Below are positions 13,676 through 37,902 of a stretch of 64,000 bases of DNA, piece after piece. Within the stretch, counting starts at the first letter, position 1, and each line of letters starts with the position of its first letter. The DNA is from Nitrospinaceae bacterium. GTDB taxonomy: Bacteria; Nitrospinota; Nitrospinia; Nitrospinales; Nitrospinaceae. Where the stretch lies: NCBI GenBank assembly GCA_965223665.1, contig OZ245011.1:2560001-2624000 (forward strand), read 5' to 3'. The notes under the pieces were generated by a model. The model was not told the origin of the DNA. It did no database searches and worked only from the letters and a program-made list of their open reading frames with translations. Made by a program: the position numbers and the translations under genes.

Positions 13676-13720
13676 GGCACGCCTGGCAGGACTCGAACCT
13701 GCGACCTACGGATTAGAAGT
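13676..13720 (-). repeat. att site: duplicated 3' part of tRNA-Arg(UCU)
   Basis: ggcacgcctggcaggactcgaacctgcgacctacggattagaagt is identical to 52331..52375. Confidence 0.97.
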
Positions 13721-13844
13721 ACATCGAATACTTTAATTTCCTTTCCTTCCTTGATCTTCCCATAAGTTCCCAATATAATAATTTCAGCTATTTATAAACC
13801 TTATCGAGAAAATTGTTTTTCTTCGAAAGTAGAGATGGGAAGTA

Positions 13845-15098
13845 TTGGGAATGCAAAAATGTGATAAAAATGTGATAAAAGTAGACCCGCGGATGAATAA
13901 CAAATCGGTCCACTGGGTTGGGACTAAATATCCCGGGGTGCAATTCAGGGAACATGAGACTCGCAAATTTAAAAGGCGATTAGACCGCTCTATCATCATT
14001 CGCTATCGAAAACACGGAAAATTAGTGAATGAAACTGTTGGTTGGGAAACTGATGGTGCCACTTTAGAAGAAGCGGCGAAACTACGTGGACAAATCATTC
14101 AAAATATTCGCTTAGGTTCTGGATTTCAATCTTTAAAAGAAAAGCGAGAGTTGGAGCAAACCAAACGAAAGAAGAAAATCGAAGAAAAGAAATCTAAAGA
14201 AATAGAAAATATATCTTTCGAACAATTAGCTCAAAATTATCTAGACTGGGCCAGGTCCCATAAAAAAAGTTGGCGTGATGACTACTCCCGCTACCAATAT
14301 CATTTGGGTCCATCTTTAGGGAAACTAGTTGCGAAAAAGATTAAAGTTTTAGAATTAGAACGATTCAAGAAAAAATTGAATCACAAAGGTCTTGCTCCAG
14401 GAACCATTCGTCATTGTTTAGTCTTAATCCGGCAAATCTACAACCGTGCCTCGCGGATAGGATTATTTGATGGTCCAAATCCGATTAAGGAAACCTCTCA
14501 AATTGATCGCCATTTTTTAAAAACACCTGATAACCGACGCTTACGGTTTTTGAGTCGAGATGAAGCAGATTCCTTACTTACGGAACTGAAGCAAAGAAGT
14601 CCGCAAGTGTATAACATGACCTTACTTTCGTTGCATACGGGTATGCGAGCCGGTGAAATATTTGCGCTTACTTGGCAAGATATAGACTTGGCCCATAAAA
14701 TTATCACTATTCGAAATCCTAAGAACAATGAAAGTCGGCAAGCGTATATGACACCGCAGGTTTTTGAAATATTGGGGCAATTAAAAAATGCTAACTCTAA
14801 AAGACAACATCTGATCTTTAGTAATCGCAAGGGAAACCAAATTAAAGAGATTTCGAATGTGTTTTCAAAGATTGTGCAACAGCTTGGGTTAAATGACGGG
14901 GTAACAGATTTAAGAAGCAAACTGGTATTTCATTCGATCCGGCACACGTTTGCAAGCTGGTTGGCTCTTCAAGGAGAAACCTTATTAACGATAAAGGAAT
15001 TAATGGGTCATAAAGATATAAACATGACAATGCGTTATGCTCATTTAATTCCAGATCAAAAAAGAAATGCAGTAATTAAACTGGGGATAGGAGAATAG
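13845..15098 (+). CDS. int: Tyrosine recombinase / phage integrase
   Basis: Catalytic motifs HTGMRAGE (R), NPKN (K), HSIRH, LMGH, TMRY. The real start may be ATG 13893. Confidence 0.95.
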   Translation: MGMQKCDKNVIKVDPRMNNKSVHWVGTKYPGVQFREHETRKFKRRLDRSIIIRYRKHGKLVNETVGWETDGATLEEAAKLRGQIIQNIRLGSGFQSLKEKRELEQTKRKKKIEEKKSKEIENISFEQLAQNYLDWARSHKKSWRDDYSRYQYHLGPSLGKLVAKKIKVLELERFKKKLNHKGLAPGTIRHCLVLIRQIYNRASRIGLFDGPNPIKETSQIDRHFLKTPDNRRLRFLSRDEADSLLTELKQRSPQVYNMTLLSLHTGMRAGEIFALTWQDIDLAHKIITIRNPKNNESRQAYMTPQVFEILGQLKNANSKRQHLIFSNRKGNQIKEISNVFSKIVQQLGLNDGVTDLRSKLVFHSIRHTFASWLALQGETLLTIKELMGHKDINMTMRYAHLIPDQKRNAVIKLGIGE

Positions 15099-15105
15099 GA
15101 ATAAA

Positions 15106-16071
15106 ATGAATGAATTAATAAAGTATTTAGAAATTCATCCTTCCTTTAACCAAAATACAAAACCTGAGCAATTAGAGAAAATTTTGAGAGGTCCATGGTG
15201 TCCATTACTTGGAAGAATTCCAAAACTCGGGCTGCCATTAAATTCACCCGAAAACAGGTGTTTGTTTATAATAATTGAATCAAGAAAATTATGGGGGATC
15301 GACTTTGAGCCAACTTTTAATAGATGTGGAAAAAATCCCGACTGGCCGAAAAAGAATAGTATAAATTCTTACCCCGAAAAGGAATTTGCGGAGATTGTTT
15401 TAAAGACGGCGCGTGAAATTGATCGGTTGTCACCGTCGATAATGTTGAATTCTGAAATTCGAGATCCCAAGAAAGATTATCTTTTAATGGAAGATGGATC
15501 TTACGCTATTTCTAAGGGTATTGATCAGGTTCCAATTCATGAAATACGAATTGTTGCGAATTCTTTGTTACGTCCAAGCTATCAAAAATTTAAAGATCAA
15601 CAACTTTTGGCAAGTCTAGCTATTTACAGTGCTTGGCATGTTTTTGAATTTTTGATAAGAAAATTTTCAGATGTAGATATAACTGAAATACTTCCCAGGT
15701 TATACCGGGCGGAAGGTTTATTAAGAACAGCAAAAATAATAGAGGGTAATGAAAAAGCCGAAGATTCAATAAAGTTAGGATTCCAAAAAGGACAAAAAGA
15801 AGGAATCTCAGTCCAAAATAGATTAAATGCCAAGAAACCCAGAAGGCCTGATCCGTTAAATGAATTTATTTTAAATATCCTTAAAAAAAATAAAGGCAAT
15901 CTAAATTCAAATCAAATGTGGCAGATTATTAAAGCAAATGTAGGCGAAGACTGTATAGTGACTGTGACCGATTCGGTTATTGAGTATGAAGATAAAAATT
16001 CCAGGATAAACTCGTTAAAGAAAAAATCTTTCCCTCCTCGATTCCATAGAATAAAAAAATTGCTCTTTTAA
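15106..16071 (+). CDS. Hypothetical protein, basic C-terminus possibly DNA-binding
   Basis: 321-aa ORF with GGAG/AGGA RBS, 7 bp after int; no recognised family. Confidence 0.6.
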   Translation: MNELIKYLEIHPSFNQNTKPEQLEKILRGPWCPLLGRIPKLGLPLNSPENRCLFIIIESRKLWGIDFEPTFNRCGKNPDWPKKNSINSYPEKEFAEIVLKTAREIDRLSPSIMLNSEIRDPKKDYLLMEDGSYAISKGIDQVPIHEIRIVANSLLRPSYQKFKDQQLLASLAIYSAWHVFEFLIRKFSDVDITEILPRLYRAEGLLRTAKIIEGNEKAEDSIKLGFQKGQKEGISVQNRLNAKKPRRPDPLNEFILNILKKNKGNLNSNQMWQIIKANVGEDCIVTVTDSVIEYEDKNSRINSLKKKSFPPRFHRIKKLLF

Positions 16072-16100
16072 AATTTCAAAAGCGCGCTTTTGAAATTTTA
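16069..16100. promoter_or_regulatory. Perfect 32-bp palindrome (operator or hairpin)
   Basis: TAAAATTTCAAAAGCG|CGCTTTTGAAATTTTA. Confidence 0.6.
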
Positions 16101-16155
16101 CCAATGTAAATTAACTATCAATTATTAACCCAATGGAAAAGTTGGGAACTTTACA

Positions 16156-16383
16156 TTGGAAAGGAGAATTATGAATAAAGAAATCAACCCTAAAATGATA
16201 GCCCGCACAAATGTTCACGAGTTATTCCCTGGTCTTTCCTCTAAATACTTAGCCAATTTGAAATCACTGGGGAAAGGTCCTCAACCTTATAAAGTGGGAC
16301 GAAGAATTTTCTACCTTGTATCCGACATTGAAGGGTTTATGAAGAAAAATCCTCTTCCTTTAAAAGCTGGAAACCCTATTTAA
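16156..16383 (+). CDS. Excisionase/AlpA-like helix-turn-helix protein
   Basis: LSSKYLANLKSLGKGPQPYKVGRRIFYLVSDIEGF fits the MerR-like Xis/AlpA pattern. Likely start ATG 16171 after AGGAGA. Confidence 0.8.
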   Translation: MERRIMNKEINPKMIARTNVHELFPGLSSKYLANLKSLGKGPQPYKVGRRIFYLVSDIEGFMKKNPLPLKAGNPI

Positions 16384-16501
16384 ATTCTCAAATTGTTAAT
16401 TTAAGTCAATGCAGCAAATATTGAAAAATTTATTTTTTTACATAATTTTATACTGCCGTGAGAATAATACTTTCCAAAGGATTTAAAATCAAAGGTGAAT
16501 T

Positions 16502-17596
16502 ATGAAATGGTTTAAACATATGACCGATGCTCAAGATGATGAATTTATTGCCGAATTGGAATCTCAGTATCGTGGATTTGATGGTCCTGGTCGATGGTGG
16601 AGATTGTTAGAAATCATTGGCAAGCATGTGGACCAAACAGGGAAGTGTGAAGCCATCTATTCTGTTTCGCAATGGTGTCAAAAGTTAAAAGTGACGCGTT
16701 CAGGTCTGCTTAAGTTTACAAACTTGGTGGTAATTTGGGGCAAAGTGGAAACCAAAACTATTGATACAAGAATGCTAATAAGATGCCCTAAGTTACTAGA
16801 AATAAGAGATGAATATACAAGGAAATCCGGACAATCTCCTGATAAACTCCAACCAGAAACAGAAGCAAAAACAAATTTAAGAAATAATAAAAAAGAAAAG
16901 AGTGTAGAAAAGCCTTCACTCTCAATGACTGTGAAACAAAAATTTACAAATCTAAAGCAACTTGGTCCTCCCGCATCTTTAAATGGCAATGTATCTGATA
17001 TTGATAAATTCTTAAACCAAGCTCAACGTGTTCATACTAAGATCCGGGGACCAATGATCCTAAATCAAAAAAGGGACGTTAAGGTAGCGCATCGGTTAGT
17101 AAAGGAAATTCCAGACTTCAAACGGCTCAACCTACTCTGGACAATTTTTCTTAATCTAAATAATTCCTGGCTTAACACCAACCCTGGTAGGCGCTGTTTG
17201 AGCGTGTTCCCAAAGTTTTTAAATGATTGCCAAGCAGAAGTTAATCGTTTGTTTAAAGCCCGGGATTACCGAAAACAAAATAGCAGACGGGGAAACAAAA
17301 CAACGCCAAAATATGAACCCTTAACTAGAGATGATCAAATCACTTGGCAAACAGTTTTGAAAGAAGTTGAGTCTTCTAACTTGCCAGAGAATTACCAAAC
17401 CTGGTTTACCCCAATTTATCCCTTAGGCCGCAAGGGGAAAAAATTAATTATTGCAGTTCCTAACGAATATTTTTCACGTTGTTTATCTGAAAACTATTTA
17501 AAGAGGATTATGAAAATATTGAATGAACTGGATAGTACAATTGAAAATGTTGAATTTATGGCAAAACCTGAAGAAAACATGGGTGCATTCAATTAA
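16502..17596 (+). CDS. Phage-type replication initiator with C-terminal DnaA_N-like domain
   Basis: N-terminal MKWFKHMTD...WWRLLEII resembles phage replisome organisers. C-terminal WQTVLKEV...YQTWFTPI...LIIAVPNEY...Y resembles DnaA domain I. Confidence 0.7.
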   Translation: MKWFKHMTDAQDDEFIAELESQYRGFDGPGRWWRLLEIIGKHVDQTGKCEAIYSVSQWCQKLKVTRSGLLKFTNLVVIWGKVETKTIDTRMLIRCPKLLEIRDEYTRKSGQSPDKLQPETEAKTNLRNNKKEKSVEKPSLSMTVKQKFTNLKQLGPPASLNGNVSDIDKFLNQAQRVHTKIRGPMILNQKRDVKVAHRLVKEIPDFKRLNLLWTIFLNLNNSWLNTNPGRRCLSVFPKFLNDCQAEVNRLFKARDYRKQNSRRGNKTTPKYEPLTRDDQITWQTVLKEVESSNLPENYQTWFTPIYPLGRKGKKLIIAVPNEYFSRCLSENYLKRIMKILNELDSTIENVEFMAKPEENMGAFN

Positions 17597-17637
17597 TGGT
17601 CAATTGATTTTTAGTTGATATCATTTTTATAGCTTAC

Positions 17638-17692
17638 GGGTCCTTCCTAGGGGTCGTGCCTAACGGGTGCGCGGCAGCACTGGATATCGCTA
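17638..17692 (+). other. Lambda-like cos packaging site (cosQ + cosN)
   Basis: GGGTCCT-N16-TAACG-GGTGCGCGGCAG-CACTG-GATATCGCTA aligns with lambda GGGTCCT-N18-TTACG-GGGCGGCGACCT-CGCGG-GTTTTCGCTA (lambda recalled from memory) and lies directly upstream of a Nu1-like gene. Confidence 0.75.
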
Positions 17693-17806
17693 GAGAACTG
17701 TCCAAAAAATGTTTTGACGTTTTGACGCTTTAGAAAGTCTTTTAAACTGTTTTTGGATTCTCAAAACCTTTGTAACTCATTTCAAATAAAAGACTGAAAT
17801 ATTTTT

Positions 17807-18346
17807 ATGGAATTAGTTTCTCTTTATGAATATGAAAAAAGAACGGGAATCAAGCGTCAAAAAACTCACTACAATGTAAAAATTGGACGCCTCAAAACTT
17901 ATAAGGGAAAAATAAATGTAGATGAGGCCAATGAACTATTTGGCTTAATAGATAAGATTGAATCAAATCAAGAATCTTTTCATTCAAATAAATCCAATAA
18001 GAATGAAGAGGAATTCAATTACTATAAGGAACGAGCTATACATGAAAAGTTAAAAATACAACTCACACAATTAGAATTGGGAAGAAAGTCCGGTCAACTT
18101 GTGGAAATTGAATTAGTAGATCAGGAATTGAGTAAGTTAGTAACCGCAGTTCGCCAGAGGTTGTTGGCTTTACCTACCAAACTTACACCTCAACTAGTTA
18201 ATCAAAAATCTCCGGGGTTCATTAAAGAATTAATTACTGAAGCAATTTACGAAGCATTAAGTGAATTTCAACATTATAACCCGGAAAGCGGAAAAATTCT
18301 CTCCGAAAAACTCACATGCTCTCAAGGAGAAAGTGATAATTATTGA
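17807..18346 (+). CDS. Terminase small subunit, lambda Nu1-like
   Basis: N-terminal wHTH-like segment, then Y.KERA.HE...QL.QLEL....GQLV.....V......LV..VRQRLLALP.KL.PQL, typical of Nu1; 179 aa. Confidence 0.8.
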   Translation: MELVSLYEYEKRTGIKRQKTHYNVKIGRLKTYKGKINVDEANELFGLIDKIESNQESFHSNKSNKNEEEFNYYKERAIHEKLKIQLTQLELGRKSGQLVEIELVDQELSKLVTAVRQRLLALPTKLTPQLVNQKSPGFIKELITEAIYEALSEFQHYNPESGKILSEKLTCSQGESDNY

Positions 18347-18582: not shown

Positions 18583-20277
18583 ATGAAAGCTGGTATTACT
18601 TTCCTAGGTATAATTTTAATAATAATTCCTCTTACTTTTTCTGATATTTTTGCAGATGGGGAGCGCGGTCTCAGAGTAATTTTGACTGACAAACCCAAAA
18701 ATAAAGTGTTCTATAAGGAAAGTCATGCATTAATAATCGGTGCAACCAATTATACGCAAGGTTGGCCTAGTTTTCCTAACATCGAAAACGAAATTAACAA
18801 GATAAAAGAAATTCTTTCAAAAATTGGATTTGATGTTGAAGTATTAATGGATCCCACAAAAAGCCAAATGGTTTCGTATATATCAGATTTTGCAGACCAC
18901 TTCGGTCAAGAGATTGATTCTCGCATATTTCTTTATTTTATTGGTCACGGATATTCTCACAAAAATTTCTTTTCTCAGAAAACCGGATTCTTTGTACCGG
19001 TTGATGCACCGAAACCGAATAAAGATTTAGACGGATTTATAAAAAAAGCCTTTTCTTTAAATGAACTAGAGTCTATTACCAGTGGAATTAAAGCAAAACA
19101 TATTTTGTATCTATTTAATAGTTCCTTTACTAATGCCAATATGTCTTCCACTCCTTTTTCACAAAATGAAATAACTTTGGAAACCAACCAAGCTTCCAGG
19201 CAAATAATAATTGCTGATACTAATAGTTTATTGGTTGGGAAAAAACATGGGTTGGGGGAAATGTTTGTTAATGCTCTAAAAGGAATGGGAGACTTCAACA
19301 AAGATGGAAAAATAACCGGAAGTGAATTAGCTAAATACTTTCGTGATTCAATAAAAGAGTATTCAAATGAGAACTGGGATATACAGTTTGGAAACTTCCA
19401 AAGTTTGGAGAATGCAAAAGGGGATTTTGTTTTTTCAAAAATCTCCTCAGAGTTATCAGAAGATAAATCTATTCACTCTTATGAAAATTCAGAAAAAGAT
19501 GAAAACACGGACGATTTTAAAACCGAGACCTCTATTGATGAAAAGAAGCGTATTGCTGAGGAGGAGAGAAGGATAAAAGAGATAAAGGAAAAGCTGAAAT
19601 TATCAAGTTTGGAACCCCAAAAAAAGATTCCTTTTGTAACCCAATCTACTCCCCCTGAAGGAATGGTATTTGTTCTAGGTTCCGAATACCTAGCCGGTTC
19701 TGAGAAAACAGGAAGTGACTCTGTACCTTTACGAAAAGTATTTATTCAGAGTTTCTACATTGATAAAACAGAGGTAACCCAAGAGAAATATAAAAAAATC
19801 ATGGGAAGAAATCCCTCAAGGTTTAAAGGAGAAAATCTTCCTGTGGAAAGAGTTAGTTGGTCAAAAGCCCGAAAGTATTGCCAAAAAATAGGTAAACGAC
19901 TTCCTACAGAGGCAGAATGGGAATATGCTGCGAGGGGAGGAGCTGGAAATAATTCACTCGGAGATTATTGGTTCAATGGAAATACTCAACATAGTCAACC
20001 AGTTGGGAAGAAGGAACCCAATTCAATTGGATTATACGATATGCTTGGGAATGTGTGGGAATGGACCCAAGACTGGTATGACAAAAATTACTATGAAACC
20101 AGATTGGATAATAACCCTCTTGGCCCTAAAAAAGGAACTAAAAAAGTTTTACGTGGTGGAGCATGGAATTCATCCTTGGATATGATTCATCCCTCTTATC
20201 GAAGTTACTACGATCCCAGATACAAGAGTGCGACTTTTGGTTTTCGATGTGCGAAAAGCTTAAAAAATAACCAGTGA
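18583..20277 (+). CDS. Secreted caspase-like (C14) domain + FGE/SUMF1 sulfatase-modifying domain protein
   Basis: Signal peptide; SHALIIG...YFIGHG; Cys site degenerate (LFNSSF); C-terminal RLPTEAEWEYAARGG, GLYDMLGNVWEW, GFRCA. Confidence 0.88.
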   Translation: MKAGITFLGIILIIIPLTFSDIFADGERGLRVILTDKPKNKVFYKESHALIIGATNYTQGWPSFPNIENEINKIKEILSKIGFDVEVLMDPTKSQMVSYISDFADHFGQEIDSRIFLYFIGHGYSHKNFFSQKTGFFVPVDAPKPNKDLDGFIKKAFSLNELESITSGIKAKHILYLFNSSFTNANMSSTPFSQNEITLETNQASRQIIIADTNSLLVGKKHGLGEMFVNALKGMGDFNKDGKITGSELAKYFRDSIKEYSNENWDIQFGNFQSLENAKGDFVFSKISSELSEDKSIHSYENSEKDENTDDFKTETSIDEKKRIAEEERRIKEIKEKLKLSSLEPQKKIPFVTQSTPPEGMVFVLGSEYLAGSEKTGSDSVPLRKVFIQSFYIDKTEVTQEKYKKIMGRNPSRFKGENLPVERVSWSKARKYCQKIGKRLPTEAEWEYAARGGAGNNSLGDYWFNGNTQHSQPVGKKEPNSIGLYDMLGNVWEWTQDWYDKNYYETRLDNNPLGPKKGTKKVLRGGAWNSSLDMIHPSYRSYYDPRYKSATFGFRCAKSLKNNQ

Positions 20278-20280
20278 TTT

Positions 20281-23200
20281 CTATTTAACCGCAATCACAA
20301 GGTTCCTCATTCCTGTGGGTATTACTGCGAAAGGATGCTGCGTACTGTCCAGTTCTGAATTTGGAATGGATTTCAATAAAATTCCTCGACTTTGCATAGC
20401 AGATAATACTTCAATATTTCGCTTAGGAACTTCTTTGTCTACATAATTTCTTAATGAAGTAAAAAATAATTTTCCATCTTTAAATCGAGCCTTACCTTTT
20501 ATCCCATCTATGATTGCCCGGGTGAAAACGCCGCCCTTTTCCGTTTCTAATCCAAGTTCCTGACGAGATGTTCCTGTATAAATAATAGAATTCACATCAT
20601 GAATATCTTTAGCTAATTTCTGAAGGTCTTTCGAGTTTTCACTAATCACTTCCCCAGCTTCGCAAGTATCAATAATTACCATGCGTCTGCCAAGGGTTTG
20701 ATCTAAGATTTTATGCAATTTTACCCAATCAAAGCTAGTCCCCGAAGTAGACACTTTTAACTGACTATTGGATTTTTTGATTTCAGAATCTGCTGTCAAA
20801 AAATGATAATTTCCCTTTTCGTCAGTTATCCCGTGACCCGCAAAAAAATAGATCGTAGTATCATTTGGTCCAATATTTTGTATCTGGTTCAATAAAAAGG
20901 TATCAATGTCTGAGGCTTTTATTAATTTCCCATCTTGATCAGTCAAAATATTCACAACAACATTTTTAAAAAGTTTTTTTCCTTTAATTTTAAAAAGTTG
21001 AGCCATATTGAAAGCATCCAGAGGAGGGGAATACAATTGTTGCTTCTCAGGTAAATTGGGATATTGACCTATCCCAATAGCATTAACATGCAAGGTACCT
21101 TCATTGTTTTCGTTTTTATCTTTTTTGTTATTTTTTACCCATCTTTGATCACCATTTTCTGCCCACAAATTTTCAACCAGAACCTTTATGTGGTTATTAC
21201 TTCTTGGAAGAAAAGTTTGAAAATGTAAAGTATCCCCAGGATTGACTCCAGAAAGATTTCTTTGCTCTTGGGGAAGGATTTGGAAACCATTTACATAAAT
21301 GGTTATCCGTTCGGGTACCGTAATCTTATTTTTCCCCAGTTTGATGTTTATATCTGTTTTCCCTGATTTGTCGGTCTGGATGGATGCAATTTTTACATTT
21401 ACCGGAGCTCGTTTGATTAACTCATCAACCGAAATTTTTTCCAGGCCGGCCTTTTTAATTGCCCGCGTTGAGGAACTTAAAGCAAGAGTATCTCTAATAA
21501 TATCAGGACGATAAAGAAATCGGCGAAATTGGGAAGCAGTGTAATAATCGGCTGGCTTATCATATCCTCTATTTACCCGCCAACCCACATAACGATCTCC
21601 TTTGGGAGAAGCATCATAAAACCCCTCAGGTGTCCAAGCAACCCACTCATCATCAAATCCATGAAAAATACTGAGAAGCAGGCTACCTGAAGATATATCC
21701 CAAATCTTTATTGTTTGATCCGCGGAGCCTGAAAATAGCCAGCGGTTATCAGGCGAAACCGATAAAGCCCAAACATCAGACGTATGACCAATAAAGTCAT
21801 TCACTTTTTTGCCATTTTCAATGTTGTAAGAAGTTAAAACACCGTGAGCACCCCCACTAATAATTAATTTCCCGTTGTGAGTTATGGTAACACTTCGGTG
21901 GTCAGAACCCGTAAACTGGTCTTTCTTTATCCTTTTATGAAAGACTCCCTTTTTATAAATGTTAAGAGTAGGATGAATATTTTTATTAGGTGTATCTATT
22001 GACCAGTTTTCTATTTTCTTAAAAGCCTGAAAATAATTTTTATCGTCTTGTATTAAAGAACCGACACCAAGATTAAAATCACCAGAGGGTTCCTGCAAAA
22101 TAAAACTTTTTAAGAGAGGAACATTGAACTTAAGGCAACTTTTTCCAGGACAAATTCTTTTTTTTCTCCAAGCAAGTCTCTTTCCCTCTTTTGAAATACC
22201 AATACCAAAAATTCCTTTTCCTTTTCCAACCAATTTTTTTATAACTTCTCCAGTAGATATGTCCCATAAATAAAATTCATGGTTTACTCCTCCACCTGTG
22301 AGAGCGATTTTTCCATTTGGAGAAATAGCTGTCGCTAATGTAATATTGTCATGTTTGCTAAAAAAAGATAGACGCTTCCCAGTTGGAATTTCAAAAACAT
22401 TGTTTATTGAGGTATCACCAGCAGCTCCAGTTAAAACTTTTTTCCCATCCGGAGAAATGGAAATATTTGCTACATCGGAACCCTGCACTCCTAAGATTTT
22501 TAAATATTTTCCAGTTAGGCCGTTCCATATTCGAATACTATTGTCCCGGCTTCCCGAAAGTATGTACTCCCCATTCGGAGTAAAAGCAACTGTATCAACA
22601 AAATCTATATGTCCTCTTAAGTTGGAAATTAGGTTGCCAGATGAAACATCCCATAGTTTTAACGTATTATCATGACTCCCTGTTACAACCATTGAGTCAT
22701 CCGGTGAAAAAGCGACTGCCGCAACTTTTCCTTTATGACCTTTCAATATATGTTTTGTTTTTCCAGTTTTTAGATTCCAAATTCTAGCAATATTATCAAA
22801 GCCTCCTGAGATCAAAAATTTACCACTATTTGAAAAAGCTAAGTCTAGAATAACGTTTGTATGCCCCTTTAATAATTTGATTATTTCACCAGTATGGAAA
22901 TCTATAATTCGAATATTTCCACATTGGCCGGGGCATTCATTGTGAAACCACCCTCCCAAAGCTAACAGATTATTATTGGGAGAAAGAGCCGCAGCGTATA
23001 TCATTCCTTCTGTTGCATTTCCAATTTGTCCCCTGAAAACTTTTGTGGTAATTCCTCTTTCAATATCTATCACACGGGCAGTTTTATCGTCAGAGATTGT
23101 AACCAAACTTTTACCATCTTTAGTAAAAAATGCATCTCTAATAATGGATGTATGACCTCCTGAATTAATTTCAAGAATAGGCTTTTCAAATGAATTTTTA

Positions 23201-23397
23201 GTATTACTAACCTTATTGAATGAAATATTAGTTCTATAGAATAATGGGGAGGTTAAGGATACGTTTTGAGGGGCAGCGTTTAACTTACTAGTGAAATGAG
23301 AAAAAAAAATAAAACAAATAGAAGTAATTATACTTAATATCAAATGCAATTTAGAAAGAGACCTGACAGGAAGGCCTATTTTGCATGTTTTTGACAT
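20281..23397 (-). CDS. WD40-repeat protein with C-terminal caspase-like (C14) domain
   Basis: Many GH...WD repeats; WVAWTPEGFYDAS linker; FFAGHG and IIDTCEAG His/Cys dyad; N-terminal hydrophobic segment. Confidence 0.9.
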   Translation of the reverse strand: MSKTCKIGLPVRSLSKLHLILSIITSICFIFFSHFTSKLNAAPQNVSLTSPLFYRTNISFNKVSNTKNSFEKPILEINSGGHTSIIRDAFFTKDGKSLVTISDDKTARVIDIERGITTKVFRGQIGNATEGMIYAAALSPNNNLLALGGWFHNECPGQCGNIRIIDFHTGEIIKLLKGHTNVILDLAFSNSGKFLISGGFDNIARIWNLKTGKTKHILKGHKGKVAAVAFSPDDSMVVTGSHDNTLKLWDVSSGNLISNLRGHIDFVDTVAFTPNGEYILSGSRDNSIRIWNGLTGKYLKILGVQGSDVANISISPDGKKVLTGAAGDTSINNVFEIPTGKRLSFFSKHDNITLATAISPNGKIALTGGGVNHEFYLWDISTGEVIKKLVGKGKGIFGIGISKEGKRLAWRKKRICPGKSCLKFNVPLLKSFILQEPSGDFNLGVGSLIQDDKNYFQAFKKIENWSIDTPNKNIHPTLNIYKKGVFHKRIKKDQFTGSDHRSVTITHNGKLIISGGAHGVLTSYNIENGKKVNDFIGHTSDVWALSVSPDNRWLFSGSADQTIKIWDISSGSLLLSIFHGFDDEWVAWTPEGFYDASPKGDRYVGWRVNRGYDKPADYYTASQFRRFLYRPDIIRDTLALSSSTRAIKKAGLEKISVDELIKRAPVNVKIASIQTDKSGKTDINIKLGKNKITVPERITIYVNGFQILPQEQRNLSGVNPGDTLHFQTFLPRSNNHIKVLVENLWAENGDQRWVKNNKKDKNENNEGTLHVNAIGIGQYPNLPEKQQLYSPPLDAFNMAQLFKIKGKKLFKNVVVNILTDQDGKLIKASDIDTFLLNQIQNIGPNDTTIYFFAGHGITDEKGNYHFLTADSEIKKSNSQLKVSTSGTSFDWVKLHKILDQTLGRRMVIIDTCEAGEVISENSKDLQKLAKDIHDVNSIIYTGTSRQELGLETEKGGVFTRAIIDGIKGKARFKDGKLFFTSLRNYVDKEVPKRNIEVLSAMQSRGILLKSIPNSELDSTQHPFAVIPTGMRNLVIAVK

Positions 23398-23486
23398 TTT
23401 TAGATCTTGTATTGACTAAAAAAATATTAATTTTTTTTTAAAAAGAAATACTTCGTATTCTAAATAATTATACAATGAAATTAAAT

Positions 23487-25670
23487 TTATTGATCACCTT
23501 GACAGGCTTGGTCTCCTTCAATACAGCCTCCGGCATCTAACTCCTCTGTTTCTTGTTCAAGTAGGACTATCATATCTGCCGGGTCAGTTTTCTCAGGTTG
23601 TCTTTCTTCACTTTTAGTTTTAGTAATTTGGCGAGTAGATTGAACCGCCTGTTCAGCGGGTTCATTAGTTGTCTGGCTGTCCACTCGGGCTTGGCATGCT
23701 GGTCCGCTGCAATTTCTACCTCCCCCTCCGGGATCCCGTTTATATCCTCTTGGTTGTCCTAAAAGCACAAGCTGACCGCCCTCTATCGAACGGTCTGGAC
23801 CCCTTGTATCCAAGGTAATATTGTCTAAAAAGGAAAGATCCCGAAATTTCCAATCTAACACTTGCCCTTCGGTAACGGAATTTTCATCTTCATCTACCAC
23901 AGTATCTAAATTTGATATTAGAATCCCAATATTCCCTCCTCTGGTTGTAATTCTATTGTTTGTTTCTTCAAATATAATTTCATTTGTTTCAAAAAGTACA
24001 GAGGGGGTTGGGTATTTCTGGTCCCCAGGCGTAATTCCTCCGTCAATACCGTCTATTAAAAATTTTTCACCATCTTTACGTAAGGTTTGTTTAAGATCCA
24101 AGATATTATCTGAAAGCCTTTCTAAAATTATTGCTTCATCTGCAATTAAATGAATGAATGTATCTTTTCCTATTCTTTCCAAGGCTTCCTCCGAAACAAC
24201 CTCTGTTCCTAGTTCCGCATTATCTCTACTGTCTGGAACCGGATCTGTTTGAAAACCACTAAGATCATTTTCGATGGATCCTCCATCAAATTCAGTTCTA
24301 CTATCTGAAAATATCGAGATTTCACCAATAGGTTTTTCCAAGAGTGGTCTTCCAAATTCCTCATCAGTGATTCTCAATATTCTTGGATCTAACAATAGAG
24401 CTCCAGCTGAGCCATTTGTAGAACCTGCATCTACAAATCCAGCAAAAGTGAGGTTTTCTTTTCCTGATACTTCTACCAATCCACCGTCGCCCGAAACTGA
24501 ACCACCTCGTGAATCAATATTTCCAAAATAACGTGTCGTTCCATCCGCCCAAAGAATGACCTTGCCACCGTCTCCGTTTTCCAAAGCAGATGCATCAATT
24601 ATTGTATTGGGCCCTACATAAGTTTGAGTAGCATTCGGTACCTCTCCCTTACCCTGGAAATCTCCTCCGACTAATGCAGTTCCTCCTCCAGATACTCCCG
24701 AAACATTTATAAATGCATATTGAAATAACCCTACCTTATCTCCCAACACATGAACCGTACCACCCATATCCCCTGATTCATTGCCAGATGCATCCAATTC
24801 GCCGGTTACAGCAGTAATTCCATTCTCTCCACCCATCAGCCAGATTTCCCCATTTTTCTCCTGGAGAGTATTTGCCCGGATTCGACCTGAATGATTCACC
24901 GTATTACGAATTACGGAACCTGCATCCAACGCTGAAAGTATTACTCTTCCACCATCTGCTTCAATTATTCCGGTATTTAATACTCTATTTTCAAGAATGT
25001 TACCTTGATCATCAAGAACATCCCCTTCCACTGCTTCAGATATTGCGAAGTTAATCAAACCATCACCCGCAAAATCAAGAGTAACCTCAGTACCTGAAGC
25101 CAAGGCCACAGACCCAAGGTTTGCCGTTATGGTCCCTTTGTTGTATACCGCCGGAGCAAGTAATCCTATTGTGGTTCCCTCAATATGCCCTTCATTAATA
25201 ATTGCAGACAAGGGATTATTTGGATCTTGAGAAAACAAATAATTTTGATTCAAAAAATCCTGGTCTGAAATATTCAATGTAGTTGCTACTAAGCCTCCGA
25301 CATTAATACGGGCATCTTGACCAAAAATAATTCCTGAGCGGTTCGTAAGAAAAACTTTTCCATTCGAGGATAAACTTCCCAAAATAGCACTGGGATTAGC
25401 CCCTACCACTCGATTGAGCGCAACAGCATTTGAATTGGGTTGAGAAAAATGAACAGACTCAGCTTTTCCAATACTGAAGGAATTCCAATTGGTTATCAGT
25501 TGTTGGGAGGATTGGTTAATCACCATACTCTTCGGATCAGGTTGGTGAATATTTCCTTGACCAGATGTGATTTGACCTCCTTGGGGAAGTGCAAAGGAAG
25601 AAAGAGGATTAGCAAAATAAAGGATAATTAGAAAGCTGAGAAAACTTTTCTTGAAAAATATTTTATTCAT
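23487..25670 (-). CDS. TpsA / filamentous haemagglutinin N-terminal (TPS) domain exoprotein
   Basis: Signal peptide then LPQGG...INQ...NWNSFSIG...LNRV.G...SNGKVFL.N..GIIFG; beta-helix G-rich repeats; GALLLDP. Confidence 0.9.
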   Translation of the reverse strand: MNKIFFKKSFLSFLIILYFANPLSSFALPQGGQITSGQGNIHQPDPKSMVINQSSQQLITNWNSFSIGKAESVHFSQPNSNAVALNRVVGANPSAILGSLSSNGKVFLTNRSGIIFGQDARINVGGLVATTLNISDQDFLNQNYLFSQDPNNPLSAIINEGHIEGTTIGLLAPAVYNKGTITANLGSVALASGTEVTLDFAGDGLINFAISEAVEGDVLDDQGNILENRVLNTGIIEADGGRVILSALDAGSVIRNTVNHSGRIRANTLQEKNGEIWLMGGENGITAVTGELDASGNESGDMGGTVHVLGDKVGLFQYAFINVSGVSGGGTALVGGDFQGKGEVPNATQTYVGPNTIIDASALENGDGGKVILWADGTTRYFGNIDSRGGSVSGDGGLVEVSGKENLTFAGFVDAGSTNGSAGALLLDPRILRITDEEFGRPLLEKPIGEISIFSDSRTEFDGGSIENDLSGFQTDPVPDSRDNAELGTEVVSEEALERIGKDTFIHLIADEAIILERLSDNILDLKQTLRKDGEKFLIDGIDGGITPGDQKYPTPSVLFETNEIIFEETNNRITTRGGNIGILISNLDTVVDEDENSVTEGQVLDWKFRDLSFLDNITLDTRGPDRSIEGGQLVLLGQPRGYKRDPGGGGRNCSGPACQARVDSQTTNEPAEQAVQSTRQITKTKSEERQPEKTDPADMIVLLEQETEELDAGGCIEGDQACQGDQ

Positions 25671-25713
25671 GACTCCCCCAAGTATAAAAATATCAAAAAA
25701 ATATCCTTTGAAA

Positions 25714-27477
25714 TTAAAAAGTCAAAATTCCATTTACAAGCCAAGTATGATCACTCCCATCAGAGGGCCTTGGTCCTGACAGAGGCTTACTGTAACTTAC
25801 GGCAAATGAAAAAGCCGGGATCCAAAACTCAGCTTTTAATTTTGGAATATTGATTTGCAAACCAAACCCATATCCAGAGATATATTCATCATTAGATTCC
25901 CCCGGCAAAGCATCAATAACAAAAACACCCCCGTAATCAATAAATCCAATAAAAGAAAAAATATCCTTTAATGACAAACCATTGATGCCCAAAGGTATAT
26001 CTACAGGGAACGGTAAAACATATTCAGCAGAAACTGCAAATCCATGGTCTCCTGAAAACTCTGCCAAGGGATACCCTCGAACTGTACCTACACCCCCAAT
26101 GGCAAATAAGTCCGGGGCCAGAACCCTAGAGCTTGCTATTTGCCCTGACCCTTTTAATATGAAATAACTATTTAATACATTTATATTTTGATACCGAGTT
26201 ATTACTGCATACCCAATGGTCGCATCATCATTTCCTCCTCGGTCTAAAGGAAGAAGATTACTCTCGTCAAAAACCGTTTGCTGACCTCTTAAATCAAAAA
26301 ACGTCCACCCTAAAAAATTATCTCGTATATTTCCCCTAATCGCTATAAAAGCATCCCCAATATCATCATCACTGGTTTTGATAGTATCAAACTGGAAGTT
26401 ATTATAAATTCTGTATTCAAATCCTCCGAATAAACCAATTTGAATTGATCGAGATCTGAATACAGGGATTCCCAATTCAATGTTAAATAAATTTGCATCC
26501 CCTCCTCCTCTTAATGCCGAAAGAGATTGTCCCAGTGTAAAATCTGAATAAGTGTAAGAAAACTTTAAAGAAAACCCGAGGCTATTAAAAAAATATAAAT
26601 AAGAGGCATTGATATAATTTAAATCCTCGTCGGTTTTGATTCCTCTAAAATAAATTTGATCTCCAAGACTCAAAAGGTTCGCAACTAAAGCCGACACACC
26701 AAATCTGTTTCCGCCTGTAAAACGGGATCCAAAATTATCACCGTCAATAGAAATAGAATAATTTTGGGTTTCAGTAATTTGAAGGACCAGATCGGAAGTG
26801 CCTGGAAGTTCTCCTGGACGTAAAGTGGATCGAACAGTAACGCCCATAAGATCATTTAATTGCAAAAGCAAACTTTCAAGATTTTGTTCCCTTAAAGGAG
26901 CTCCTCCCGTAAGTTTTTTTAGTCGGGCTCTGATATCATTAGAATCAATCTTGTTGTTACCCAATATTTCAATTTGATCTACCCTACCTTCTGCAATTAT
27001 AATTTTTACTAGACCATCTAATATTTTCTGTTGTGGAATATAGGCTTCAGATAGAATAAAACCTTCTTCACCATAGAAAGAAGTTATCTTATTCGCAATT
27101 TGATTCAATTCCTCTACAGTCATTTTCTTATTTGGAGAAACTTCTATAATCTCAGATAATTTTTGGTCACTAAAAACCGTATTGCCTTCAAAAATAATTT
27201 GTTTTACCAATACCGATGGACCTTTTAACCTTTCCGGTGCTTTGACTTTTGGTCCTTTCGTACCTGTATCCGGTATTGAAATTTCTGGTTGTTTTTTTTC
27301 GGGAGGTCGAACCGTGGGTTGAGATTTTCGAAGGGATCTATCAATAACACCTGATTTACCAGCATCAGGAACTTGGGAAAGGGAAAAGTCTACAAAACCT
27401 AGAATTATTACAAAAGAAAGAAAAAACCCAACAAAAACAGGTCGAACAGTTAGAATTAGCATAGTGAAGATCACCAA
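25714..27477 (-). CDS. TpsB (ShlB/FhaC/HecB family) transporter
   Basis: POTRA (FEGNTVFS...YGEEGFILSEAYIPQQ...EG), DNFGSRFTG, GG..TVRGY motif, C-terminal Phe. Confidence 0.92.
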   Translation of the reverse strand: MVIFTMLILTVRPVFVGFFLSFVIILGFVDFSLSQVPDAGKSGVIDRSLRKSQPTVRPPEKKQPEISIPDTGTKGPKVKAPERLKGPSVLVKQIIFEGNTVFSDQKLSEIIEVSPNKKMTVEELNQIANKITSFYGEEGFILSEAYIPQQKILDGLVKIIIAEGRVDQIEILGNNKIDSNDIRARLKKLTGGAPLREQNLESLLLQLNDLMGVTVRSTLRPGELPGTSDLVLQITETQNYSISIDGDNFGSRFTGGNRFGVSALVANLLSLGDQIYFRGIKTDEDLNYINASYLYFFNSLGFSLKFSYTYSDFTLGQSLSALRGGGDANLFNIELGIPVFRSRSIQIGLFGGFEYRIYNNFQFDTIKTSDDDIGDAFIAIRGNIRDNFLGWTFFDLRGQQTVFDESNLLPLDRGGNDDATIGYAVITRYQNINVLNSYFILKGSGQIASSRVLAPDLFAIGGVGTVRGYPLAEFSGDHGFAVSAEYVLPFPVDIPLGINGLSLKDIFSFIGFIDYGGVFVIDALPGESNDEYISGYGFGLQINIPKLKAEFWIPAFSFAVSYSKPLSGPRPSDGSDHTWLVNGILTF

Positions 27478-27773
27478 GAAGAATTCAGGTTAAGCGCATT
27501 GTTACTTTGATATTTTAATTGCTGTTTTTTAGGGTGATCTTGCTATTTCATGTCTAAAAAGTCAACTGTTTTTTTTCCGAAAATGATTGGTTAGTTTACA
27601 AAATATTCTTAAAGCAGGTGGGCGAGAAAAAGGAAAGAAAATGAGAGTAAATATAATCAATTTACAAAAATCCAAGCAAATTAATTAAACTAAAGTTAAA
27701 ATAAACCCTATATTTTCCAAAATTTACTTTACATCCAACTATGACTGCAAAAACTACAAAAATTGGTTATTTT

Positions 27774-28817
27774 TTAAGGAACGGTTTCGAATCTCCAGCT
27801 ACTTTTATAAAATTCAACGGGTTGTGACGAATCAGAACCAAGCAGTTTAACACCACGAGAAACCAGTTTGTCATATTTGACTTTTGTTCCTTTGAATTGA
27901 TTTAATCCAGAACCTATTGGAATTAAATCTGTCGTCCCTAATTGAGTTTCACTGGCAAATACGGTTACCGTGTCAATTCCAAAAGGTGGAGAAGATTCTA
28001 TTTCAAACTTATCTCCCTTGAGTTTGTCGGGTATCTCGTAAATCTGCCCTCTCTTAAAAAAATTATTGGTTCTTGCCTTATTAGGAAGCAGTTGAATAAC
28101 ATTACCATCTAAATCTGTATCAATTATATTTGCGAAAAAATCATGATTGCCCTGTAAATAAATAATTATCTTCTCCCCTTCTTTATATTGTTTCTTTTCG
28201 GTCCATACCCTCACGGTGAGAGGAGACCCCTTTTCTTTTAATAAATTTGATAAACTTTTGGGTTGAAAAGTCTGCACTTTTTTAACATTTGAACCAACTT
28301 TTCCTTTATCAAATTGCTCCTGATTATTGGCAAGATAGTTTTTCTCGGAAGCATTAATTTTAGAACTGGAGTTTGAGAGTTCAAGAATATATTCAATTTT
28401 TGCATTTATTCGGACATGGTATTTTGAGGTCTTTTTATCAAAACCATCATCAATCCGCTCTAATAAAGTTACATAGTTTCCATCTTTATTTTTGACAAGG
28501 TGAAAATCAAAGTATTTATTTTTTAATTTTGTCTTTGACATGATTATATTCTTTGAATTCTCAACAGCTTTAAGTTTAGCATCTTGTAATGCCTTTTCCC
28601 TAGCTACTTCCAAAGATTCATTTGGGCCTACATAATAATAACCATTGCTTTGCCGAATTACTGAGCGGGTTTCTTCCTGTGGGACAATTTCTAATCCACG
28701 AAATTGCTGTGACGATGCATTAGATGCGTTAACCATGCAAAGAATATAAATAGCAATCATAAATTTGCCCATAGCTAACAAAAAATGATTTTGAAACATG
28801 TTTTCCTCAATATTCAT
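27774..28817 (-). CDS. Exported DUF4384-domain protein
   Basis: VWTEKKQYKEGEKI...DG.VIQLLPN...YEIP....FEI..PFG.D.V.VFAS; N-terminal AREKALQDAK.KAVE (LPP20/FlgT-N-like helix). Confidence 0.75.
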   Translation of the reverse strand: MNIEENMFQNHFLLAMGKFMIAIYILCMVNASNASSQQFRGLEIVPQEETRSVIRQSNGYYYVGPNESLEVAREKALQDAKLKAVENSKNIIMSKTKLKNKYFDFHLVKNKDGNYVTLLERIDDGFDKKTSKYHVRINAKIEYILELSNSSSKINASEKNYLANNQEQFDKGKVGSNVKKVQTFQPKSLSNLLKEKGSPLTVRVWTEKKQYKEGEKIIIYLQGNHDFFANIIDTDLDGNVIQLLPNKARTNNFFKRGQIYEIPDKLKGDKFEIESSPPFGIDTVTVFASETQLGTTDLIPIGSGLNQFKGTKVKYDKLVSRGVKLLGSDSSQPVEFYKSSWRFETVP

Positions 28818-29014
28818 AACAACCTCTAAATGAAAAAAATCTTATCGAGAAAGTTTAAACTAAAATGAATTTTTATCTGTTTCAGGAAGGAAAAACGAGT
28901 GAAAAAAATATTTAAATAAAAGAAAGTATTAAATTTCTTTTCCCAATTTTAAAAATAAACAAATTTTAAAATGAAACTTTCCAAAATAAAATAATTTGGG
29001 GATCTGGAATTTCT

Positions 29015-29758
29015 TTAGTTTTCCTGGGCAACCGAAAAATCATCCTCTTGAGCTCCCTGCCCCTCTACTTCAAGGACCCCCTCTTCACCAATCACCTTTT
29101 CTCCCAGCATGTTTGAGACCTCAGAAATATTAAGTGACATTTTTACATATGCATCACCAGATTCATTCCAGCCAAAGTCAGAAACATCTGCTAAATAACA
29201 CGTCGCAAGAACTTTTACTTTCACCTCATCTGAGGTCAGAATGTAATTATTAATAGTAGTATGGCTTTCCAGAGTGAATCCCACAATCCGCTTAGCCAAC
29301 TGTTTATAAGCATCTACTTCTGCAGCACGCAACGCTTTTAAAGGCCCTGCCAATGAAGGGGTAGATGTTGAAAAAGCAACTCGTTTAAAAACTTTATTAC
29401 CCAAATTTACCGTCTTACCATCTATATTAGTAATGCTTTCAAGTCTTACGGAGGCAGTGACTTTCGCCAAATCCTTTTCAGGATCATATAAAACCTCCTC
29501 AAATTTGATCCCCTTCATAAACGCTTTTGCTTTTGTCTCTGTTTTGCCAACAAATTTTGCTGCAACCATATTTTCCACCTCTTCGGTACTTCGTACTTTC
29601 ATGCCATAAACTGATTCGATTAAACCTCTTTCAGCTAAAACTTTTGCAGCCGTTATAGTCATAATTCTTTTATTTCCAGCACTAGCGCTAACCACGGAAA
29701 TTAAAAAGACAACAGCAAGCAAAATAAAAAAGCTAATGGTTTTATTAATTCTTACCAT
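29015..29758 (-). CDS. Exported protein with two LPP20/FlgP-like domains
   Basis: Signal peptide; internal duplication AAKVLAERGLIESVYG.KV.S...V.N / AAEVDAYKQLAKRIVG..L.S...I.N. Confidence 0.7.
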   Translation of the reverse strand: MVRINKTISFFILLAVVFLISVVSASAGNKRIMTITAAKVLAERGLIESVYGMKVRSTEEVENMVAAKFVGKTETKAKAFMKGIKFEEVLYDPEKDLAKVTASVRLESITNIDGKTVNLGNKVFKRVAFSTSTPSLAGPLKALRAAEVDAYKQLAKRIVGFTLESHTTINNYILTSDEVKVKVLATCYLADVSDFGWNESGDAYVKMSLNISEVSNMLGEKVIGEEGVLEVEGQGAQEDDFSVAQEN

Positions 29759-30083
29759 CCGCCTCTCCTTCTAAAGATGGTTGGTCTTTATGTTTTTTAT
29801 TTAACTGAATTTTCCCCTCCTTTATAAGAGAAGATTTTTTGTCATAGGTCTTAAATAAAATCTTGGTAGTTTTTCTCTCATTAATAAATACTTTTGCTTC
29901 AACGCGTCCATTTTTAGGTAAATCCGGCAAAGAGCCAACAACACTTTTATTCAATTGATCCATCTGGTCAATTCTCTTTTCTATAAGCTCAGAATTCCCC
30001 CCCCATGCAAGCCCTACGAAAAATATACAAAGAATTTTTATAAAAAATAAAATATTCAAACATATGATCTTAGAATTCTTCAT
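29745..30083 (-). CDS. Small exported hypothetical protein (112 aa)
   Basis: ATG 30083 (MKNSKII...) followed by a hydrophobic signal; overlaps both neighbours by 14 bp. Confidence 0.6.
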   Translation of the reverse strand: MKNSKIICLNILFFIKILCIFFVGLAWGGNSELIEKRIDQMDQLNKSVVGSLPDLPKNGRVEAKVFINERKTTKILFKTYDKKSSLIKEGKIQLNKKHKDQPSLEGEADGKN

Positions 30084-31491: not shown

Positions 31492-31735
31492 GCGAACAAT
31501 TGAAACTCAAGAAAATACAAATTCAATAGTTTTAAATCTAACCGGAAAAAAAATTCAGTTTTGGGGTAGGAGGTGACTAAACTCAGAAAAACCTTAAAGA
31601 GAAGATGGAGAAAAATTATCATACTAACCCTTCGCATAGAAAAATTTCCCTTGAGAGACAGTGACAGCTTTAAAGTACAAATCGATTTAGCAAAACAAAT
31701 AAACCTTTTGGGAAACTTACGAAATAGTATAAAAA

Positions 31736-32068
31736 TTACTTTTTGTCTGAAACAATATTAATTACTTCTTTTACATTTGATCCCGGTCCAATTACAATAC
31801 TGTTTTCATTATTGTCACCGTTATTGCACTTCGAGTTTTTTGAACAATTCTTAGCTTTGGATTTTGCTTTAACAATAATATAACTTATATTAGTATCGGT
31901 TTTACCTGCTTTGTCATTTTTGGCAATGCTATCATCAGTATATTTAGAAATACCATCGTCTAAATCTCCTCCTGCCATACTATTATCTAGAGGAAATGCC
32001 ACTAAGAAAATTAATTGAACTAGCAAAATAAATAATCTCGTGCTCATAATTATCTCTCCATATGTCAA
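31736..32068 (-). CDS. Small secreted protein with a partial repeat-like C-terminus
   Basis: Signal peptide (start likely ATG 32047, GGAGA RBS); C-terminal NENSIVIGPGSNVKEVINI; one Cys pair. Confidence 0.7.
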   Translation of the reverse strand: MTYGEIIMSTRLFILLVQLIFLVAFPLDNSMAGGDLDDGISKYTDDSIAKNDKAGKTDTNISYIIVKAKSKAKNCSKNSKCNNGDNNENSIVIGPGSNVKEVINIVSDKK

Positions 32069-32203
32069 ATAAACCAGGGAATCTTTTTATTGGCCGAAAG
32101 CTAAGTTTATAGATTGATATACGTTTCCCACCTTTAAAATCTTTAAAAAATCCAATATCAAATCCCTACTCATACCTTTAAATTTTTCCAAAAATTGGAA
32201 CAC

Positions 32204-32240
32204 GCTAAAAGGAAACCTCATTTTGGGGTTTCCTTTTAGC
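32204..32240 (-). terminator. Stem-loop downstream of the 164-aa repeat protein
   Basis: gctaaaaggaaacc-N9-ggtttccttttagc, 14-bp perfect inverted repeat. Confidence 0.7.
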
Positions 32241-32302
32241 TTTTAAAGATAAAGAACAAAAACAATTAATTTTAAAAAAAATATAAGTCAATATTTACTG
32301 TT

Positions 32303-37758: not shown

Positions 37759-37902
37759 TTTTAAAATTCAACATTTTTCCATAATACCTTTTTCCCACCA
37801 AAGAATTTTGATTAACCTGTTTACTTGGATTTCATTGGGAAAAAAATATTTAATTTTTTTGAATATAAATCAAGAGACCAATCTCAAATATGAAAAACTA
37901 CA

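Follow-up and report, generated by a model that had tools for sequence, protein, structure and literature searches.

Introduction

The phage-inducible chromosomal island (PICI) EcCICFT073 is packaged in the full-size heads of a lambdoid helper (PMC6092414, PMC6739421). According to these accounts, it is about one third of its helper in length and is packaged by skipping cos sites, it replicates through a primase, its Rpp protein works with the phage small terminase (TerS), and it carries a capsid homologue. Among the Staphylococcus aureus pathogenicity islands (SaPIs), pac elements use their own TerS with the helper large terminase (TerL), and cos elements such as SaPIbov5 carry the helper cos (PMC5052747). 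Here, a 64,000-nucleotide stretch of the genome of a Nitrospinaceae bacterium of the phylum Nitrospinota (assembly GCA_965223665.1, contig OZ245011.1, positions 2,560,001 to 2,624,000), hereafter the window, was analysed. It contains a 38,655-bp island with the core int-ORF-xis-rep-cos-terS and about 34 kb of cargo, and the same genome carries a lambdoid prophage, P1, as candidate helper. The island is probably a helper-dependent, cos-packaged, PICI-like satellite that does not shrink the capsid and travels as one copy per full-size head.

The island is like EcCICFT073 in having an integrase-led unidirectional core, a putative AlpA-like gene, a cosQ and cosN of the helper type and a different cosB (PMC6092414, PMC6739421). 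A cutting site common to the helper combined with a private recognition site is the pattern described for EcCICFT073 (PMC6739421). In contrast, the island has an initiator-type Rep, no capsid gene, and its own full-length TerS instead of a short Rpp that needs the helper TerS to reach TerL, and its length is 90% of P1 instead of about one third of the helper. Compared with the classes of the SatelliteFinder survey (PMC10085698), it resembles PICI type B without capsid, with integrase, putative regulator, replication gene and small terminase in the standard order, cargo after terS and no tail or portal gene. It lacks capsid and primase, two of the five core components, and may fall outside types A and B as set out there. 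Because it has no primase and no capsid gene and breaks the one-third size rule, it is called PICI-like here and not a prototypical PICI. [quoted passage not shown] More than 99.9% of the surveyed PICIs are in Proteobacteria or Firmicutes.

The nearest oversized precedent is SaPIbov2 (27 kb, no cpmB), a satellite that uses large capsids only; unlike the island, it is headful (pac) packaged and stays well under a headful (PMC5052747). Enlarged cos SaPIs without a capsid-redirection gene, which is the configuration of the island, were sought in that study and, as it reports, none was found. VEIMEs (virion-encapsidated integrative mobile elements), PICMIs (phage-inducible chromosomal minimalist islands) and PICI-like tycheposons are marine and att-integrated like the island (PMC9618062, PMC10803314, bioRxiv 2020.12.28.424599). 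VEIMEs and PICMIs fill full-size heads without capsid remodelling, but they do so with several short copies joined into a concatemer (monomers of <5-16.8 kb; 8 x 6 kb) (PMC9618062, PMC10803314), and an element packaged as one monomer per head would escape concatemer detection. The PICI-like tycheposons are reported without cargo in the preprint that describes them (bioRxiv 2020.12.28.424599). PICIs larger than 22 kb (11 profiles) appear in the HE-PICI survey, elongated by captured phage late genes, whereas the island is lengthened by non-phage cargo and terS is its sole late gene (PMC10111431). In a search of mostly open-access literature, no paper on a helper-sized, capsid-less cos satellite was found, with the limit that large elements without a capsid gene could be listed in the supplements of PMC10085698 and PMC10111431, and no report of satellites in this phylum was found.

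Boundaries of the island

The island is bounded by two 45-bp att repeats at 13676-13720 and 52331-52375, which are identical at 45/45 positions and spaced by 38,655 bp. The right repeat is the 3' part of a tRNA-Arg(TCT) gene (52330..52406, minus strand), and the left repeat (minus strand) is a copy of the 3' half of this gene. The integrase is accompanied by att repeats at a specific site, as in PICIs. A tandem repeat of the putative integrase arm type was found by motif search on the plus strand at 13862..13878 (left arm) and 52256..52272 (right arm). The whole 4.35-Mb genome has only two copies of this motif, one within either end of the island. Since it is found only inside the two ends, as both arms of one attP would be, the whole 38.7 kb appears to be one integrase unit. 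In the same-genus genome G018, synteny is kept on both sides of this tRNA, the island is absent and 2.2 kb of other DNA is present instead.

Candidate helper and cos site

Two lambdoid prophages in the host genome have rep, cos and terS homologous to those of the island. P1, an intact prophage on the same chromosome as the island (C1:2236392-2279240), is 42,804 bp long and sits at a tRNA-Glu gene, with open frames for terS, gpA-type terL, portal, protease-capsid, connectors and tail. P2 (contig C2) is 36,972 bp long, and both its terL and its rep appear as split genes in this assembly. The island has 90% of the length of P1 (38,655 / 42,804 = 0.90). In the phylum, four lambdoid prophages were sized, at 36.2, 38.0, 39.8 and 42.8 kb.

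The order of a lambda-type cos was found upstream of terS: a cosQ-like heptamer (17638..17644, plus strand), identical to the lambda cosQ context (J02459), then ACG and a predicted 12-nt cohesive end, cosN (17666..17677, plus strand). The spacer from cosQ to ACG is 18 nt on the island versus 20 nt in lambda. The likeness of this site to a cos is far beyond chance. A 43-mer of the island matched the cos of P1 at 39/43 positions and that of P2 at 29/43; no background match in the 4.35-Mb genome exceeded 27/43. A strict cos motif has exactly three occurrences in the genome, which are the island, P1 and P2. Among viral loci with this motif, a gpA-type TerL follows within 3 kb downstream in 13/21, which argues that the motif is a true cos. 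In addition, 4/34 motif loci end 11-12 nt past ACG, the predicted cut, as filled-in cohesive ends would; three of these four are one phage. A looser cos pattern searched over 120 genomes stayed at the chance level of the reversed control and was not used.

The likeness to P1 is concentrated in the cutting site. From cosQ to cosN the island agrees with P1 at 41/48 positions and in the whole 12-mer (12/12), and downstream at 21/62; the values for P2 are 31/48, 10/12 and 30/62. The downstream region contains a tandem 8-mer repeat resembling cosB (17712..17727, plus strand). This short repeat after the A-tract differs among the island, P1, P2 and other elements, including that of genome G047, which have another repeat at the same position. 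Such element specificity suggests that the repeat is a TerS-binding, cosB-like site. As in EcCICFT073, cosQ and cosN are common to the candidate helper and cosB is different.

The layout of P1 is unusual: rep lies ~130 bp from the att in tRNA-Glu, and the repressor and integrase are at the other end. P1 also has ~12 kb of cargo including a Dcm/Vsr pair, with a Vsr 53% identical to that of the island. Four of the five small contigs (C2, C3, C4, C6) are mobile elements, namely P2 and satellite variants related to islands on C1.

TerS and the absence of structural genes

The gene after cos encodes a full-length Nu1-type TerS (17807..18346, plus strand; phrog_57, E 5e-21), the small terminase of a PICI core. 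Alignment to lambda Nu1 by hhalign covered 137 columns (E 7e-5, probability 63). The structure model (pLDDT 79) has an N-terminal winged helix and a helical C-terminus and matched a TerS in BFVD (E 6e-4). Against the PDB only weak MerR/Xis winged-helix matches were obtained (E>0.3), and no match to RppC was found by profile or PDB fold search.

The two halves of TerS differ in their relationship to P1, with 11/50 identities in residues 1-50 and 47/97 in residues 65-165. The corresponding values for P2 are 19/47 at the N-terminus and 38/97 at the C-terminus. When two copies of island TerS (60-170) were modelled with P1 TerL (9-300) by ESMFold2, the score was 0.65 against 0.02 for the best control, with contact agreement between runs of at least 83% and partner pLDDT of at least 77. 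This mark was reached by 116/157 solved pairs and by 2/215 mismatched pairs. The modelled TerL interface includes TerS residues 108-120, a 13-residue stretch that is identical in P1 TerS.

In a PHROGs scan of 29 island open reading frames (ORFs), TerS was the sole head or packaging match. An FGE-sulfatase protein of the cargo gave a secondary match to the 'tail protein' family phrog_11262 (E 6e-9), over its FGE domain. No remnant of TerL, portal, capsid or tail was found on the island at E<=0.01 by tblastn, for which lambda Nu1/gpA, the two prophages P1 and P2 and three further lambdoid loci served as queries. The island looks like a PICI in having no TerL, portal, tail or lysis genes. The capsid or capsid-morphogenesis gene, which is optional in PICI type B, is absent from the island and present in its sibling in genome G047. 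The own TerL, portal, capsid and head-tail genes of capsid-forming PICIs (cf-PICIs) were not found on the island, nor were the marks of a lambdoid prophage, which are a terL and structural genes behind terS, or what is left of them, a repressor and a prophage-type integrase.

A first-pass annotation of this DNA had claimed a 38,655-bp unit with ~34 kb of cargo, a co-oriented int-ORF-xis-rep-cos-terS series between att repeats, a cos-like site, a Nu1-like TerS and no TerL or structural gene between the repeats. All these parts were confirmed at their places, with two start codons corrected as given below, and the resident prophage with a matching cos that it had proposed to look for is P1, with its identical cosN 12-mer. 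Its comparison of TerS with Rpp found no support in that form. TerS has its full length, and in the model its C-terminal half contacts the helper TerL, so its likeness to SaPI TerS is greater than to Rpp.

Core genes

Five co-oriented ORFs follow the left repeat and, with cos, form the core. The first encodes a tyrosine integrase (13893..15098, plus strand; PF00589, E 4e-33). Its frame is open from TTG 13845, and the N-termini of homologues make ATG 13893 the more likely start, which corrects the earlier coordinates. The integrase is 51% identical to that of a 16-kb PICI-like element in genome G042 and 22% identical to a neighbouring prophage integrase, and gave no match to the integrase of P1.

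The second gene, ORF2 (15106..16071, plus strand), encodes 321 aa of unknown function with a possible C-terminal winged helix. It gave no family match in Pfam, PHROG, NCBIfam or PADLOC, and a word-based protein search returned only itself. Twenty-nine distant relatives were found (24-43% identity), and of the 12 scanned none had a named family above cut-off. Its C-terminus resembles the ORF at the same position of an island in genome G012 (E 4e-6 in a 10-sequence set). The AlphaFold model has pLDDT 38, and its Atlas matches are unnamed with low recognition. A perfect 32-nt palindrome (16069..16100), the sole island palindrome with arms >=10 bp, lies between the end of ORF2 and xis and may be a terminator or operator.

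The third gene encodes a putative Xis/AlpA-like small DNA-binding protein of 70-75 aa (16171..16383, plus strand), with the start corrected to ATG 16171. As for a regulator of the AlpA/MerR/Stl type, no Pfam AlpA match was obtained, and this ORF gave only a weak match to phrog_66 (E 1e-3). All four elements with related integrases that were compared have an Xis homologue at the same position, with E values from 5e-10 to 3e-9 in a set of five sequences. No repressor gene was found in the core.

The fourth gene encodes a putative phage-type replication initiator, Rep, of 364 aa (16502..17596, plus strand; C-terminal DnaA_N, E 7e-10). Its N-terminus is Lin1244_N-like, its C-terminus is DnaA domain I-like, and its relatives carry PF14297. 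It is 35% identical over 425 columns to the gene at the same position of P1 and 40% identical to that of P2. From these domains, Rep presumably acts as a replication initiator. No primase or helicase gene was found on the island; the initiator-like gene takes the place of the PICI primase-replicase. A search for Rep across the phylum was dominated by host DnaA and was uninformative.

Relatives and their sizes

TerS matches were found 15 times in 11/120 genomes of the phylum, 7 with TerL downstream and 8 without, one of the latter because the contig ends. One relative, in G047, has the order int-ORF-alpA-rep-capsid-ORF-cos-terS-cargo; it is 14,268 bp long, one third of a head, and encodes a capsid. 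Integrase relatives were present in 17/120 genomes, and the 12 contexts analysed are PICI-like or degenerate, with varied replication and packaging genes. No gpA-TerL or portal match was obtained in these 12 contexts, one of which, the G042 element, has capsid and tape-measure-like genes. Among 401 Pseudomonadota genomes, 93 had phrog_57 and 75 had gpA. Twenty TerS matches without listed TerL were picked from them; eight are integrase-led satellite cores, and the five that could be sized measure 13.9-19.4 kb. The recurrence of integrase-led TerS cores in this phylum and in Pseudomonadota indicates that the design is common.

These results do not support the earlier proposal of an undescribed family, because the same layout is that of ordinary 7-20-kb PICI-like elements in two phyla, and size is the unusual feature. 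The gene-order search proposed with it showed that the layout recurs and gave 17 att-to-att lengths; a second copy of this exact core was not found by word, cos-motif and TerS searches. A single-protein TerS scan of viral contigs gave nothing, and all 12 viral loci from a TerS alignment scan had TerL downstream and were set aside as phages.

The 17 lengths are 6.9, 8.2, 12.6, 13.2, 13.9, 14.1, 14.2, 14.3, 14.4, 14.9, 15.1, 16.1, 19.4, 19.9, 36.0, 38.7 and 45.4 kb. The set is mixed: some elements have no recognised TerS, and three lengths rest on 15-27-nt repeats. Elements without a repeat or at a contig end were left out (G401c, G141, G342, G238, G138, G067, G060, G059, G016, G046:C16 and G049). 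No length falls between 20 and 36 kb (0/17), and such a gap appeared in simulations at a rate of 0.55% under a log-normal and 2% under a log-uniform model, a post hoc comparison on this mixed set.

Two other elements exceed 30 kb. A second large TerS-only island of the host (C1:549132-594548) is 45,369 bp long at tRNA-Pro(CGG) and has int, an ORF, an O-like rep, a P27-family terS, ~41 kb of cargo and arm repeats at both ends. No structural gene was found among its 29 ORFs scanned, and its terS and the one on contig C3 are 87% identical. A P27-type helper was not found in the host genome, where both PF05119 matches are TerL-less elements. A site upstream in this island showed only a loose likeness to the HK97 cos and was rejected. 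The other is a 36,002-bp island at tRNA-Arg(CCG) in G012 (contig C16), with integrase and Xis families common to the island, a rep and a primase-helicase; its length is 95% of that of a 38-kb prophage in the same genome.

Several smaller loci were observed in these searches. Four related TerS-only satellites (L213-L216) are in one genome (G401:C6), in which no gpA TerL was found; three are about 14-15 kb, and three have a ~870-aa gene right after terS. No terminase lies close to the cos-like motif at loci L156, L170 and L172, where it precedes a 95-aa ORF, a ~545-aa ORF and a primase-like ORF. L099, a small cos-only element without terS, carries int and a rep-like ORF and measures about 6.9 kb at tmRNA, and the same rep-like ORF with cos is found without terS on a short contig (L150). 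In a metagenomic TerL-less cos-terS locus (L145), cos is 43/48 identical to that of a phage (L149/L102) and the cosB-like repeat is different; the two are a probable second satellite-helper pair.

Cargo and neighbouring features

The ~34 kb of cargo is in two blocks of differing GC. Block A (18583..39051, GC 35%) encodes caspase-domain/FGE and WD40-caspase proteins, a TPS/ShlB two-partner secretion pair, two DUF4384 proteins, two 36-aa-repeat proteins and unknown exported proteins. The repeat proteins (window 32303-35058) are paralogous and exported and have no Pfam match. Block B (39644..51837, GC 40%) encodes Dcm and Vsr, DUF6339, MzaD-like and Z1/MzaC-like proteins (Mza matches below NCBIfam cut-offs), a methyl-directed restriction endonuclease, a pentapeptide protein and unknown ORFs. 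It is a probable anti-phage cluster.

Just inside the right arm lies a 3'-half fragment of tRNA-Lys(CTT) (52172..52217, minus strand; 43/46 versus the tRNA-Lys at C1:3671046), a second att-like sequence that may be the att relic of another element or a second att. About 570 bp outside the left att (13105-13675) have no counterpart in G018, and the contig that holds them is of low depth, as on the island; this stretch may have come with the island or with an earlier element. Contig depth was 2-5 on the island and 14.5-22.8 left of 13105 in two runs, which does not represent copy number and was not used as evidence. The tRNA was the sole Rfam match, and a promoter and terminator scan of the island performed no better than on shuffled sequence. 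Outside the island, the minus strand of window 1-12942 encodes two giant repeat proteins in tandem, conserved in G018; the one scanned has HYR, CBM96 and metallophosphoesterase domains.

Discussion

Several features of a cos satellite are carried by the sequence itself: att cores and arms, an intact core, a lambda-type cos, and a predicted cosN and TerS helix common to P1, next to a divergent TerS DNA-binding end with its putative target repeats, no recognisable capsid gene and 0.9 of the length of P1. From these, the following cycle can be proposed. Helper induction would switch on the co-oriented core, and Int and Xis would excise a 38,655-bp circle through the att cores and arm repeats. Rep, possibly recruiting the host helicase through its DnaA-domain-I-like end, would make concatemers. 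The island TerS would bind its own cosB-like repeats and, as modelled, recruit the gpA-type TerL of P1 or a close relative through the conserved helix. TerL would then cut the shared cosN, and a P1 head would be filled from cos to cos with one island. With no gene to set capsid size, such an element would have room for ~34 kb of cargo and would resemble a natural cosmid. The earlier reading as a PICI-like cos satellite with a helper-sized monomer is supported in part, now with a candidate helper and a length ratio, and without Rpp and the new family.

A number of points weigh against this reading. The core has no close relative: a word search with TerS returned only itself, and strict cos scans gave few loci. 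The TerS-TerL model indicates likeness and not binding, and does not single out P1, because it is a textbook pair and close cousins pass too. Island and P1 TerS group with only 86/93 support in a C-terminal tree, satellite TerS do not form one clade, and the N-terminus is closer to P2. Lambda packages 78-105% of its genome length, and the island at 90% of P1 would fit this window, which is that of lambda and not P1's own. No lysis gene was recognised among 25 P1 proteins scanned, and neither iterons in rep nor an origin was found. In the contigs of four sequencing runs of one study, which may be the source of the assembly, no att-site joint, no depth gain of the island and no cos junction were seen. 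Between the G012 island and the prophage of its genome no cos match was found, and the TerS-like gene of that island is unproven.

A considerably less likely explanation is that the island is an ordinary PICI-like satellite bloated by cargo at a tRNA hot spot, which may be immobile or poorly packaged and matches a head in size by coincidence. Of the measured relatives, 14/17 are 7-20 kb, this genome has several large islands, and the 45.4-kb island is without a matching P27-type helper. The two GC blocks of cargo, the stray tRNA-Lys att-like fragment and the lack of visible activity in contig mapping point the same way. Against this, the island has perfect att repeats, both arms, open core ORFs and a coding density of 87%, and no second integrase or transposase match was found on the island. 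The empty 20-36 kb range also speaks against it, within the limits of a post hoc, mixed set.

It is fairly improbable that the island is a deleted lambdoid prophage, in which rep-cos-terS is a non-functional leftover of a P1/P2-like phage and cargo has taken the place of the late genes. The resident prophages have homologous rep, cos and terS in the same order, the length equals that of a prophage, satellite TerS genes group with local phages, and the 3' end of terS still resembles a terS/terL overlap. In P1 and P2 this overlap holds the terL start codon, but on the island it is ATA and the frame closes soon. Structural remnants were not found, and gpZ and other genes between rep and cos of P1 and P2 are cleanly absent, with 41 bp from the rep stop to cosQ. 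The core, which is 22-48% diverged from P1, is intact, and the integrase and Xis belong to a satellite-associated group, the integrase without a match to that of P1. A phage origin of the rep-cos-terS module is likely under every reading.

Least probable is that TerS acts like Rpp, as a heteromer with helper TerS that blocks helper packaging, or that the true helper is another, P2-like or non-resident, phage: Rpp also has an N-terminal winged helix (PMC6739421), and the N-terminal domain and downstream region are nearer to P2, but the full-length TerS without RppC likeness models onto TerL through its C-terminal half, and cosN is identical to that of P1 and differs at 2/12 positions from that of P2, whose terL and rep are split.

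Whether the helper-dependent satellite proposed here belongs to a recurring class is a more tentative matter, and we consider it somewhat doubtful that cos PICI-like elements without capsid shrinking have repeatedly grown to one helper genome with 30-40 kb of cargo. If they have, satellite lengths would cluster at whole-number fractions of head capacity with 20-35 kb empty, and the members would be this island, the 45.4-kb tRNA-Pro island and possibly the 36.0-kb G012 island. Such a head-filling class would have been overlooked because tools size satellites by their core or detect concatemers.

The gene order of the island is the known capsid-less PICI design, and its size, about three times that of typical phage satellites, is the unusual feature. 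In published descriptions satellites are about one third as long as their helper, and this limits their cargo to a few kb. If a cos satellite filled a whole head, ~34 kb of genes for defence and surface functions would be transferred at phage-like frequency. A single near-complete genome contains both the satellite and its candidate helper, and their specificity code can be read from a common cosN and modelled TerL-binding helix and a private DNA-binding domain with its repeats, so packaging piracy and the size rule become directly testable. The island would also extend PICI-like satellites to a phylum for which no such report was found.

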